A stretch of 64,000 bases of DNA, from the NCBI GenBank assembly GCA_964016885.1, contig OZ024743.1:1116001-1180000 (forward strand). Reading direction: 5' to 3'. Position numbers and translations under genes: made by a program. Under the pieces are notes generated by a model, which worked only from the letters and a program-made list of their open reading frames with translations, made no database searches and was not told the DNA's origin. This document shows positions 283 to 57,553 of the stretch, piece by piece (within the stretch, counting starts at the first letter, position 1; each line of letters begins with the position of its first letter). The stretch is from Eledone cirrhosa (Eukaryota).

Positions 283-428
283 ACAGAGGGTGTCGTAAGA
301 TACTAGGTAGACCATACCAGAGAACTCGATATTTTGAGTAGTAGAGTGAGTAATATTAAAAGATTCACGACCCCGAAGGGTCTAACTGTCGAAACGGCCG
401 GAGCTCAGCCGTCGGGGTCCTGAAACTT
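283..428. mobile_element. Family A fold-back element next to (TA)n, carrying the 3' half of a hammerhead ribozyme
   Basis: GAAAC-GGC-cggagctca-GCC-GTC-GGGGTC (HHR GAAA, stem III, GUC site and stem I strand); similar to 3546, 3750, 7536, 44497, 54260, 57352. Confidence 0.7.
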
Positions 429-617
429 TTGATATATATATTATATATATATATAAATATATATATTGGCTTTTTGCTACAATACTTTCTATACCTTTCA
501 TTTATATATATATATATATATATACGTGAAGATAGACATTTCTACATGTATGTATGTATGCATGTATGCATATATATATATATATGCATACATGCATATA
601 TATATATATATATATAT

Positions 618-766
618 GCATTGATACCTGTGCCGCCCAAAATCATCCCAACTTCAGAATCTTTCCCCTCTACAAATTTAAAGATAATGCCACCCACACC
701 CAGCGCATCAGCAAGGAATCTTACTTCATTAACAAATACGGACCCCGTCTAAACACTTCTCCCTAA
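618..766 (+). pseudogene. Penelope-like element GIY-YIG endonuclease C-terminal fragment
   Basis: Translates IDTCAAQNHPNFRIFPLYKFKDNATHTQRISKESYFINKYGPRLN, matching the R...E..FI.K..P.LN end of PLE endonucleases; starts at a (TA)n tract. Confidence 0.65.
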
Positions 767-54500: not shown

Positions 54501-57351
54501 TAAATGCTCTGCTATTTGAATTGCCGTTTATTCACCCAGTTTCCTCCGTTCACTCCTGAAGAACGAAGGGCTAAAAAAAGTGCATCGAGCTTATCTCATC
54601 TTACCAATGAAATTAGTGAACCTTTACACTATAACCTCATATATATATATATGTGTGTGTGTGTGTGTGTGTGTGTGTGTGTGTGTGTGTGTGTGTGTGT
54701 GTGTGTGTGTGTGTGTGTGTGTGTGTGTGTGTGTGTGTGTGTGAGTGTGTGTGTGTGTGTATGCATGTGTGCGTGTGTGTGTGTGTGTGTGTGTGTGTGT
54801 GTGTGTGTGTGAGTGTGTGTGTGTGTGCATGTGTGCGTGTGTGTGTGTGTGTGTGTGTCTGTGTGTGTGTGTGTGTGTGTGTGTGTGTGTGTGTGTGTGT
54901 GTGTGTGTGTGTGTTTGTGTGTGTGTGTGTGTGCGCGCGCGCGTGTGTGTGTGATTATAGATATATGCGAATGAAAGAATGGGAGCAAAGCGAAGAGTCG
55001 AAACATATCAAGTAGACTTCAAAGAACATAAATAAAGAAAGAAATGAAGAAAGAAAGCATTAAATGAATAAATATGTACGTACATAAATACATAAATAAA
55101 CAACGATATACTAACAAGTAAATACGCAAGAAAACAAGGGCAAAGGAAAAGCAATTGACAGAACTGCAAAAAATAAAATGCAACAAAATAATTGCATACG
55201 CCAAGAAGCGTATTTACACCTACACGTGCTTGAATGTGGGGTGTATAAATGATGATATAAACTCTGTATATAGTTTCATGGCAAAGATAATTGGTTGGAA
55301 GTAGGTTTTAAAACACATGTTAAGCATGAAAGCTTCATGAGTCAGTGTGGAGACAGCTTAAACAAAAGCCTCATTTATAGTTGACGGCATGAACGAAATT
55401 AAACAGTTTCTTACGGTGGTAATGTGTCCAAAATTAGATATTCATTTGCTGCAATAGCACTGAGCGTGTACAAGCAATTGCTATTCTCATAAACCTGATT
55501 GTTGCCAAATTTTTTATCGTGCACACTTGGTACTCATTTTCAGAAGACAAAGACTATTTGTTGTGAAGTGGTTTTGAGATCTTAGTAATTACACTAATAT
55601 GCCATAGATAGGGTGGTACATTGTAGAGCTTTTAGCGAATATCAGAGAAGATACCAGTTAAGACGACCCAGATAATGTTAACAACTAGTTGATAGGCCAT
55701 GTTTTCAAAGCTAACGATCTCTAAGTTTAATTACATTATAAAACTTAGTCTTTTTCATTATCTCCGCTTTTCTGCATTCATCTCGTCAACGATTCAGCTC
55801 ATTGAAATATATATATTTATTTATTTTTAAATATGTACATGTTTAAAAAAGCTCCTCGACAAAACTGTATAGGTATAAGTATGGCCTGTTTTGATATCTT
55901 TATTACCATTCAATTTCCGCTCAGCCATGCTGTGATGAGAAAATGCAAGTACTTACATGATGCAGCCTAATATAAATGGATGGCGAATTAACCGAGTCGT
56001 TTCAGCGTCTGATAAAATAATTTTGAGTATTTTTTTCGACTTTCTGCCATCTGAGTTCAAATGCTGTCTTGAGAAGCTTTGGGTTTCCACTTTTCGGGTT
56101 CGATTAAATAAATTACCAGTCCAGGGCGGTGGATTTGGGAAATTATCAGCGCGTCAGCAGACGTTGCTTGTTGCATTTGTTCCGGCTCTTTGTATTCCAA
56201 TTAAAAATGCCACTCTCGCCCGATTTCGTGTCTTCGGCGGAGTCAAAACTGCTGATCAATCTTTACGTAAGTCTCGGTTTTGAGGATAACTTACTCCCAC
56301 CTGTCCTAGAACAAACAATAAAAAAAATGCAGGATATTTCGCATATCCCTAATACTTCTGATGTCAGAAACAATTTTAAGAAGCAATCAACGGTACTGGA
56401 TATGCTTTAAATTTAATCAAATTTTGGCTTATGGAAATTATAATTTGTATGATATTTCTGTTACAATATGTCCCTAAATTTGTTAGACCATCAACCCCTT
56501 TATGGAACCCTTGACCCTCATCAATCCCAGGCGTTTACAAAAAGATAAATTATTAATAATAATCTATACATATATATAAAACTGAAATTGTCTGTGTGTG
56601 TGTTCTAATTTTTGCCAAGTCTATACAAACCCACATTTCTACTCCGATTGATTTCAAACTTGCATTTATATATTCCTTGCGGTCTAAAGATATTAACTGC
56701 AGCTTTTACTTTTCAGTTTTCTGTTGTTAAAGGCGTGTTAGGCGCCGGTTAGCAATCTCTCTCTTTTTCTTAGTCTGTCTTTTTAGATAGATACATAGCT
56801 ATAACATCGCACCATTATAATATCTGTCTGTATGTCTGGCTATCTGCATTACGACATTATGAAAACATCGTTCTCATTGCTGACGTATTATCTTCGCTAT
56901 TTTCCGTTCATTGCCACGAACGGAAAATAGCGAACAAAAGTATCGTCTTCCTGTTTTCCGTCGGTTGCAACGATTTTTGAAATATTTACTTCTGCGTTCA
57001 CAGATTGATTTTTTTAGTTTCAGAAGATCCCGTTAAGGGTGAAAGCAGCGATTCTTTGCTTAAACTTTAATCTGTTATTTTAATATATATATATATATAT
57101 ATATATATATATATATATATATATATATATATATATATATATATATATATATACAAAAATCGGAATTAAGAGTATTCCGCAGTTTACTGTAATAATAATA
57201 ATAATAATAGTATTATTAGCTCAAAGAAGAAGAATTCTTTACACACTTCTCACTGTGTAACACATTTCTCTTTGTGTAATATATACTTATATATATATAT
57301 ATATATATATATATATATATATATATATATATATATATATATATATATATA

Positions 57352-57553
57352 TAACGAAGGAAATGTGGTAAGGAACCAGGTGGACCATAACGCACCAAAG
57401 TACTCAATACTTAGGGTAGTAGAGTGGGTAATAGGAACAAGTAAGACCCCGACGGCTGAGCTCAAGCCGTTTCGACGGCTAATTCTGTACTCAATGTACA
57501 GAATTAGCCGTCGAAACGGCTTGAGCTCAGCCGTCGGAGTCTTACTTGTTCCT
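57352..57553. mobile_element. Family A fold-back element
   Basis: ~60-bp inverted arms centred on gtac-tcaat-gtac, plus tail. Confidence 0.85.

Follow-up and report, generated by a model that had tools for sequence, protein, structure and literature searches.

Hammerhead ribozyme motifs between the TA microsatellites of Eledone cirrhosa: ends of truncated Penelope-like elements and of non-coding monomers likely copied by Hydra-type proteins

In a stretch of 64,000 nucleotides from the genome of Eledone cirrhosa (contig OZ024743.1, positions 1,116,001 to 1,180,000 of the forward strand, hereafter the window), islands of unique sequence lying between (TA)n microsatellites carry motifs resembling hammerhead ribozymes (HHRs), which raises the question of whether these motifs are genuine, of which elements they are the remains and by what enzymes these elements have been moved. 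The initial annotation, made from the letters of the window, had seen in them a community of TA-targeted retrozymes mobilised by the enzymes of Penelope-like elements (PLEs). The feature is real, unusually dense and built from known kinds of parts. The motifs are probably the 3' ends of PLEs inserted in (TA)n, namely truncated autonomous elements of the Hydra and Neptune types, together with non-coding monomers likely copied in trans by Hydra-type proteins.

The motifs were sought with a descriptor of the type I HHR (stem I, YUGANRA, stem II, GAAA, stem III and NUH, with three helices), which was written after reading bases 1-60000 of the window and loosened stepwise on it, bulged or mismatched stems II, long loops 2 and palindromic stems III being allowed. 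At a cutoff score of ≥20, the window yielded 15 motifs with this relaxed descriptor, whereas 100 dinucleotide-shuffled versions (shuffled block by block, 300 nt each) averaged 0.32 (maximum 2). The strictest form gave 3 motifs vs. 0.04 in shuffles but is too rigid, because bulged stems II and palindromic stems III occur. The comparison with Rfam models, which the initial annotation had recommended, recovered no hammerhead among the 150 matches listed of 175 at E≤1 in the window, those listed being microsatellite noise and hairpin-driven miRNA noise. The 15 intact motifs and their decayed relatives fall into about 15 families, somewhat more than the 13 or so first counted, and include one HHR missing from the earlier list (core 10815, minus strand). 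Fourteen of the 20 examples on that list pass the descriptor (3998, 4325, 5143, 6591, 7843, 8434, 11633, 20726, 31663, 32064, 32698, 34304, 42152 and 42925); the other six (11230, 19729, 20246, 34695, 44795 and 47307) carry stem substitutions, five having no relaxed parse and 34695 an alternative one only, and copies of their families elsewhere do pass. As for the copies described as degenerate, 5516 and 33863 are decayed members and family A consists of half ribozymes, but 47561 has neither a parse nor a family match. The statement that most islands fold into an HHR went too far: 67 islands between (TA)5+ tracts contain ≥60 unique nt, and matches to HHR families are found in 31 of them (28/49 for those <1 kb), two of these matches being false (a coding stretch of a long interspersed nuclear element, LINE, and a low-complexity stretch) and one covering a tail only. 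The motifs of the window are real and not due to chance. They are listed below with their relatives, pLTR standing for the pseudo-long terminal repeat of a PLE and UTR for untranslated region.

283..431 (+): family A half-ribozyme, decayed 3' end of the Hydra-type PLE Hy3, matched by BLAST to the full family A HHR (full element in locus L401)
3546..3700 (-): family A 3' end, truncated within stem II
3746..3920 (unstranded): family A inverted pair, head-to-head
3957..4053 (+): family 3998 HHR and short inverted arm; core 4005, predicted cut after 4043
4072..5010 (-): family 4325 HHR (core 4400, predicted cut after 4331) within 1.5 non-coding monomer units of 629 bp each
5109..5212 (-): family 3998 HHR; core 5188, predicted cut after 5150
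5343..5900 (-): family 5516, decayed, with two copies spaced by 325 bp; the tandem was observed nowhere but here
6297..7218 (-): family 6591 HHR (core 6666, predicted cut after 6596) within about 1.3 non-coding monomer units of ~685 bp each
7539..7700 (unstranded): family A half ribozymes, inverted pair
7774..8658 (-): family 7843, partial tandem (~570-590 bp) with the U3-A8 core variant, cores 7925 and 8516
10659..10841 (-): family 10815 minimal HHR; core 10815, predicted cut after 10785; tandem units of 420-492 bp elsewhere
11096..11356 (+): family 11230/32064, Neptune-type PLE 3' end with decayed stem II
11550..11714 (+): family 11633, pLTR HHR of the Hydra-type PLE Hy1 and inverted tail arm; core 11640, predicted cut after 11686
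19558..19870 (unstranded): family 19729 inverted pair, decayed; first box CCGACGA in many genomic copies
20193..20853 (-): family 20246 with U3-A8 core, two units in tandem at a spacing of 480 bp; core 20814 passes, the other is decayed
31489..31910 (unstranded): family 31663 inverted pair; intact minus-strand HHR, core 31696, predicted cut after 31668
31980..32200 (-): family 11230/32064 minimal HHR, Neptune-type 3' end; core 32095, predicted cut after 32068
32566..33035 (-): family 32698 HHR; core 32736, predicted cut after 32703; at other loci in a tandem of 433-446 bp
33113..33961 (+): Hy1 copy, 5'-truncated, with GIY-YIG-type endonuclease frame 33113-33602 (CxCX5C linker), 3' UTR and decayed HHR near 33869
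34238..34458 (+): family 11633 HHR and tail; core 34310, predicted cut after 34355
34484..34913 (unstranded): family 32698 inverted pair; plus-strand core 34700, with a mismatch in stem III
42100..42861 (-): family 42152 HHR in a 520-556-bp non-coding monomer with inverted 5' part; core 42226, predicted cut after 42156
42879..43969 (-): Hydra-type PLE Hy2, 5'-truncated, with endonuclease frame 43514-43969, 3' UTR and HHR core 43037, predicted cut after 42929
44500..44660 (unstranded): family A inverted pair
44739..45300 (-): family 20246 unit, decayed stem III
47250..47510 (-): family 20246 unit, decayed
54261..54311 (-): family A 3' end, short
57354..57552 (unstranded): family A inverted pair, one long-tail and one short-tail arm

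Because the descriptor had been tuned on the window, it was tested on DNA beyond it. Six flanking 10-kb stretches gave 10 motifs vs. 0.2 in shuffles, and 80 evenly spaced 10-kb stretches (800 kb) gave 100 motifs, present in 39 stretches and forming 35 sequence clusters, vs. 0-5 in ten shuffles and 3 in the reversed sequence; the excess over dinucleotide-shuffled controls expected by the initial annotation is thus found both in the window and in the 800-kb sample. Scaled to the 3.0-Gb assembly, this amounts to about 365,000 motifs (bootstrap 249,000-500,000) or approximately one per 8-9 kb, an estimate obtained by sampling, in which a few matches are visibly false (e.g. a LINE coding stretch) and tandem arrays broaden the range. 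Features that the descriptor does not demand concur: among 95 unpenalised sample motifs, positions 3 and 8 form C3-G8 in 76 and U3-A8 in 14, 5 being mismatched (35/69 paired in shuffle matches), the cleavage triplet is GUA, AUA, GUC or GUU (R-U-H) in 89 vs. 23/69, and the stem III loop has 0-1 nt, i.e. is palindromic, in 74 vs. 5/69. Stem II inserts are long, up to about 90 nt, and a (TA)5 tract lies ≤400 nt downstream of 64% of sampled HHRs vs. 24% of random positions. In the family 10815 group, both sides had changed in a compensatory manner in 6/13 pairs, 94.6% of cells were paired and the covariation score was reached by 0/500 shuffles; stem pairing maintained across genomic copies, as initially proposed, is hence documented for this one group of related sequences pre-selected by the descriptor. 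That the folds are chance products of AT-rich, palindrome-rich repeats deserves next to no credence, for although the descriptor was relaxed on this very window, a few matches are false and the Rfam matches listed include no hammerhead, the held-out excess, the undemanded core features, the covariation and the placement and orientation of motifs downstream of PLE endonuclease frames all contradict it.

Regarding the nature of the elements, four of the 15 window families are ends of autonomous PLEs, three of Hydra type (including family A) and one of Neptune type, their window copies being 5'-truncated pLTR ends; eight form tandem non-coding units, and three (3998, 19729 and 31663) may belong to either class, only short or inverted ends being present in the copies inspected. 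Two endonuclease-like frames lie in the window, at 33113-33602 (+) and 43514-43969 (-), each with a CxCX5C linker. They were considered as elements devoid of reverse transcriptase (RT) and rejected as such, both being part of full frames that combine RT and endonuclease. PLE derivatives of that kind, i.e. RT-less, with an endonuclease and a hammerhead and targeting TA, reportedly exist under the name of Chuy; the literature search did not find them and they could lower the novelty of the present elements.

In full copies elsewhere, Hy1, Hy2 and Hy3 each have one open reading frame (ORF; 715, 771 and 784 codons, respectively) with a YRDD RT followed by a C-terminal GIY-YIG-type endonuclease. 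The Hy1 frame is flanked by the HHR of family 11633/33863/34304. The frames of Hy2 span about 770-800 codons, and the endonuclease is found upstream of 17/17 matches to the family 42925 HHR, in loci fetched by that endonuclease, this HHR lying about 0.4-0.5 kb behind the endonuclease match in the copies listed. Hy3 has its intact frame and a complete U3-A8 HHR in head-to-tail arrays of 3531-bp units, and family A, the commonest in the window, is its 3' end, the window copies being half ribozymes and the complete ribozyme lying elsewhere; a 29-letter word of family A has 23,267 exact genomic matches vs. 0 for the reversed control. DKT is present in 3/3 and RWK in 2/3 (RWR in Hy3), and all three full frames show the CxCX5C linker, with CxxC and CxH around E and N and no CCHH. 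Pfam detected no RT family in the Hy1 frame or in the scanned part of Hy2, and its GIY-YIG match to the Hy2 endonuclease was weak. More than 2,200 database proteins, nearly all without a name, resemble Hy3, the best with about 40-50% identity. An iterated profile over the loci fetched distinguished at least 17 Hydra-type endonuclease lineages with 22-70% pairwise identity, CxCX5C being present in 9 of the 17 representatives; several representatives are fragments that do not include the linker.

The Hydra clade of PLEs was defined by Craig et al. 2021 (PMC8557442). The clade is reported to bear HHRs and to target (TA)n, to be marked by RWK, DKT, the CxCX5C linker, CxxC and CxH, and to be generally <3 kb; the supplement describes Hydra-1_Obim from Octopus bimaculoides, with a (TA)n target and a canonical HHR. 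Judged by their motif set, the HHR in the pLTR and the insertion in (TA)n, Hy1, Hy2 and Hy3 are Hydra-clade PLEs, and share with the published clade the single RT frame with C-terminal GIY-YIG domain and the type I HHR near the 3' end (PMC8557442). Hy1 and the printed Hydra-1_Obim are about 55% identical by eye over two blocks (48/87 residues). Unlike the published list, which names one cephalopod family, the present genome holds those 17 or more endonuclease lineages, and the copy number is very high, as the matches of the family A word show; in addition, stem II inserts are long here and, whereas Hy1 has a spacing of about 2.8-2.9 kb, the Hy3 unit reaches 3.5 kb, above the norm of the clade (PMC8557442). 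The autonomous elements represent an extensive radiation within a clade of which octopus already has a record.

As for the fourth autonomous family, the 11230/32064 HHR follows an endonuclease at a distance of 449-605 nt wherever the terminal motif can be read, and this endonuclease, whose linker and domain are present in loci L193-L195 and L404, has, like those of the Neptune clade, a CX4CxxC linker (CX2-5CxxC in the clade) and a terminal P.GLN. The family is taken to be a Neptune-type PLE end, a clade call made from motifs; no intact full-length copy was present among the recovered loci. A further PLE was noticed on the minus strand of locus L240, about 3.2 kb upstream of position 4017, where a non-Hydra-type element (RT and endonuclease, frameshifted) abuts a truncated Hy3. 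The claim of PLE-type type I hammerheads tied to (TA)n stands.

The eight tandem non-coding families (4325, 6591, 42152, 10815, 20246, 7843, 32698 and 5516) form units of 0.3-0.7 kb, with spacings of 677-688 bp in 6591, 520-556 bp in 42152, 420-492 bp in 10815, 447-566 bp in 20246, about 570-590 bp in 7843, 433-446 bp in 32698 and 325 bp in 5516. These spacings are all that was used from the collinear-upstream comparison, the rest of which is confounded by overlapping loci and microsatellites. In family 4325, with its 629-bp unit, 40 scored copies on many contigs are about 100% identical over 401 nt, and hence recently amplified as such; their shared 3' end at (TA)n lies 259 nt beyond the predicted cleavage position, and 21/22 measured insertions are 628-1905 bp long (1-3 units) with ragged 5' ends, the query having favoured long copies. 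Head-to-tail units of 629, 556, 482 and 310 bp with no ORF between the ribozymes are found on different contigs. Eight monomers, those of seven window families and of a 310-bp family from the sample, family 5516 lying outside this coding test, gave no tblastn match to four PLE proteins; their GC content is 33-42%, and their longest ATG frame has 27-75 codons, except for 137 in a microsatellite-containing unit. As circles, they are predicted to be 59-68% paired, their minimum free energy (MFE) lying, relative to 25 shuffles per monomer, at z -1.9 to -8.3. The random sample (L226, L291, L258 and L293) also contains arrays in which HHR monomers of 310, 556 and 482 bp are repeated at least 4-7 times, in several cases without differences between the units, and the stretch 6727-6787 (-), inside the family 6591 monomer, matches another HHR family at 84%, which hints at a chimeric origin of this monomer.

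It could be supposed that all the families are dead 5'-truncated pLTRs of autonomous PLEs and that independent non-coding elements do not exist. This is true for 4/15 window families and corresponds to the interpretation that most solo minimal HHRs received from Cervera and de la Pena 2014 (PMC4209133); the Hydra-type endonuclease lineages, at least 17 in number, could supply the pLTRs, and the three families that may belong to either class leave room for it. The ORF-less head-to-tail units of four lengths on different contigs contradict it, as do the near-identical family 4325 copies, which indicate recent amplification as a monomer, and we consider it very improbable. The retrozyme community put forward in the initial annotation holds as far as non-coding tandem units exist and are most likely moved by PLEs, but at least 4 of the 15 families are truncated autonomous PLEs instead.

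Non-LTR retrozymes, as defined by Cervera and de la Pena 2020 (PMC7229834), and the present monomers have in common non-coding AT-rich tandem units, a type I HHR in each, predicted self-paired circles and a proposed dependence on PLEs. A PLE origin was argued by phylogeny in vertebrates by Li et al. 2026 (bioRxiv 10.64898/2026.07.22.740005), with consensus sequences of 51-972 bp; the units of 310-690 bp found here are within this range but for the most part exceed the approximately 150-450 bp of PMC7229834, and they are mostly longer than the about 170-400 nt of the animal retrozymes described. They further differ from the described retrozymes by PLE-style variable HHRs, a fixed internal 3' end in (TA)n and a distribution as dispersed 1-3-mers with some longer arrays. 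As to the minimal dimeric HHRs from truncated PLEs (PMC4209133), reported with a U3-A8 variant and many families per genome, the present motifs resemble them in the palindromic stem III, the unpaired base before stem II, the U3-A8 variant, the many consensus families and the solo and opposite-strand pairs left by truncated PLEs; the published numbers are 2,000-9,000 per genome vs. about 3.6 x 10^5 here, although the descriptors differ and the figures are not strictly comparable.

What moves the monomers is best approached through their ends. Autonomous and non-coding families alike have a fixed 3' end at (TA)n and variable 5' truncation, and inverted pairs occur in both; target-site duplications are not discernible within (TA)n. 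For 21 ends having both TA-flanked and read-through copies, low-complexity anchors and anchors without read-through having been dropped, the RNA beyond the 3' end would continue with 3-10 alternating T/A in 16 (background 0.137, P about 2e-10), and CTCY follows 4-18 nt past the 3' end in 10 (background 0.08). This TA patch with CTCY is found in Hy1, Hy2 and Hy3 as well as in non-coding families, and the end of the Hydra-element sequence printed for a coral looks similar. The optional tails measure about 70-80 nt, and family A has two 3' ends 80 nt apart (60 and 15 copies), corresponding to the long and short arms of its inverted pairs. The shared signature points to mobilisation of the monomers by Hydra-type enzymes, and the TA-targeted non-coding monomers bearing it are likely a new kind of non-LTR retrozyme variant, as far as can be judged from sequence.

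Alternatively, the monomers could be real but have spread by other means and gathered in TA tracts, be it through a LINE (e.g. RTE or Tx1), through RNA-to-RNA copying with another RT or through satellite-type recombination. The monomers have no homology to Hydra UTRs, LINEs are plentiful in the window, and the identical units of some arrays are as expected from tandem duplication. Fixed internal 3' ends without poly(A), inverted 5' arms and copies longer than one unit nevertheless match the adjoining Hydra-type elements, the TA/CTCY signature is as in those elements, and the copies are scattered over many contigs, which makes this explanation improbable.

Under the mobilisation by Hydra-type proteins favoured here, a GIY-YIG endonuclease would nick (TA)n, and the freed 3' end would pair with the UA patch of 3-10 nt at either of two internal start sites, situated 40-330 nt downstream of the ribozyme and often next to CUCY. 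The RT would then copy through the ribozyme, often stalling in stem II and thereby leaving truncated ends, or run beyond one unit on circular or multimeric RNA and generate tandems of 1-3 units, while inverted pairs with a long tail on one arm and a short tail on the other would result if a single break were primed from both of its strands. Multimeric transcripts would be cut by the ribozymes into monomers that may circularise, the non-coding ones being copied in trans by Hydra-type proteins. In vitro work on PAc, a Poseidon PLE from Anolis, described the extension of both strands and two internal sites at which the RT starts (Frangieh et al. 2024, PMC11167929), and the two family A ends 80 nt apart fit these two starts and the two-strand extension. 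The optional tail and the AT-rich target are further likenesses to PAc (PMC11167929).

Several points weigh against this reading. The tandem evidence comes from one or two loci each for 5516, 7843 and 32698, and the variants shared among the units of one array, where one private variant was common to every unit and 14 were confined to some of them, are too few to show rolling-circle copying. The monomers have no alignable sequence in common with three Hydra UTRs, so that nothing but the end signatures points to Hydra elements as their partner. CTCY was recognised after the fact, and some of the 21 ends come from related families; a first uncurated pass over the junctions, which included two spurious ends (the end of a short interspersed nuclear element, SINE, and a TA tract inside the reference), gave P=0.014. 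Besides, the RT start of PAc has no homology to the cut DNA, in contrast to the 3-10-nt TA patch found here (PMC11167929), and this patch may be what is left of a former target that was captured. Lastly, 49/63 family A arms begin within stem II (-27 to -2 from GAAA) and 0 at the predicted cut site; therefore, cleavage does not set the 5' ends.

This last observation also suits the proposal that the elements move as outlined but that their hammerheads are weak or dispensable, the uncleaved multimer serving as template and the motif acting mainly as a protein-binding or regulatory fold. Insertion of the anole PLE in vitro is reported to be unimpaired by HHR mutants (PMC11167929), and minimal PLE HHRs are described as cleaving poorly (PMC4209133). 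Folded as single strands, 10 motifs reach only modest stability (z -0.3 to -2.6), and for several the MFE structure is not a hammerhead; modest folds are however expected since the motifs, owing to their palindromic stem III, are predicted to cleave as dimers. Dozens of unrelated families have preserved the catalytic core, the pairing C3-G8 or U3-A8 and the triplet at the cleavage site, which is hard to account for without selection for the chemistry. We hold this proposal to be unlikely, though worth keeping in mind; it is compatible with mobilisation of the monomers by Hydra-type proteins.

With respect to novelty, the initial annotation claimed too much, Hydra-1_Obim (PMC8557442) and the 16 families of Acropora (PMC7229834) having come before, and a TA-targeted HHR-bearing Hydra element in octopus, retrozymes and many HHR families per genome are already known. 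The density does exceed the counts given in these papers, as PMC7229834 reports >6000 HHRs in the 16 Acropora families, about 5000 in mussel and 126,247 in axolotl. The repeat annotation of O. vulgaris (PMC13282606) mentions 30 recently active Penelope families, the words ribozyme and hammerhead being absent from its main text, and many SINE families listed as unclassified in the O. vulgaris repeat library may include the present monomers. The accessible part of PMC3846280 mentions microhomology only for 5' junctions and deletions. In a literature search that left most subscription papers out of reach, no publication was found that deals with retrozymes of cephalopods, counts HHRs across a cephalopod genome or describes a TA patch where the copying of PLEs starts. 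This density, the at least 17 Hydra endonuclease lineages and TA-targeted monomers with the PLE end signature were not found in print. Going further, and tentatively, the genome may contain the densest animal hammerhead complement reported, including a guild of non-coding circular-RNA retrozymes that would hijack Hydra-type PLE proteins via a shared UA-patch/CUCY priming site.

The dependence of animal retrozymes on PLEs has been proposed without biochemical demonstration in the published work (PMC7229834; bioRxiv 10.64898/2026.07.22.740005). Here, young matched partners are at hand, namely an intact 784-codon Hydra-type frame and near-identical 629-nt monomers; since they share target and end signature, the link between retrozyme and PLE is testable with the existing in vitro PLE assay. 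If true, this would be sequence-level evidence naming the enzyme behind the movement of animal retrozymes, together with a homology-primed variant of PLE internal initiation, and pairing with the patch would account jointly for the microsatellite targeting, the optional tail and the inverted pairs. In any case, dozens of natural hammerhead architectures not listed by Rfam models are supplied, and PLE-derived DNA makes up much of what lies between the TA microsatellites of this genome.

Other repeats accompany the HHR elements in the window. A nearly full-length non-LTR retrotransposon at 21248-26450 (-), with Pfam RT and zf-RVT domains and with APE-like and ORF1-like frames upstream, is presumably Tx1/L1-like and has truncated relatives at 26973-28130 (-) and 18639-19082 (+). 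LINE fragments with RT domains, which we take to be RTE-like, lie at 39575-41422 (-) and 45320-47290 (-), the first giving a false HHR-family match at 40359-40543. LINE-like coding fragments at 13950-14430 and 15110-15320, which start at (CATA)n tracts and have no Pfam match, are assumed to be R4/Dong-like. A SINE-like repeat of ~190 bp with a tRNA-like head, presumably akin to octopus SINEs, is present in many copies, TA runs sometimes following its 3' end:

3230-3410, 13255-13440, 16050-16235, 19880-20065, 36895-37075, 38515-38700, 48305-48510 and 48825-49005: SINE-like copies

An element of ~410 bp at 37758-38165, with terminal inverted repeats and TA flanks, resembles a miniature inverted-repeat transposable element of the Tc1/mariner kind and is unrelated to the HHR elements, while 12277-12641 is a 51-bp minisatellite in 7.2 near-identical copies. 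A short TA-flanked repeat, often inverted and with no HHR in the window (2105-2150, 10860-11040, 41410-41530 and 57005-57085), possibly represents the tails of a further PLE family truncated 3' of the ribozyme. Finally, the already mentioned stretch at 47561-47760 is an inverted pair with hammerhead-like boxes, in which the first box has 8 nt and either GAAA or stem III is damaged in each arm.

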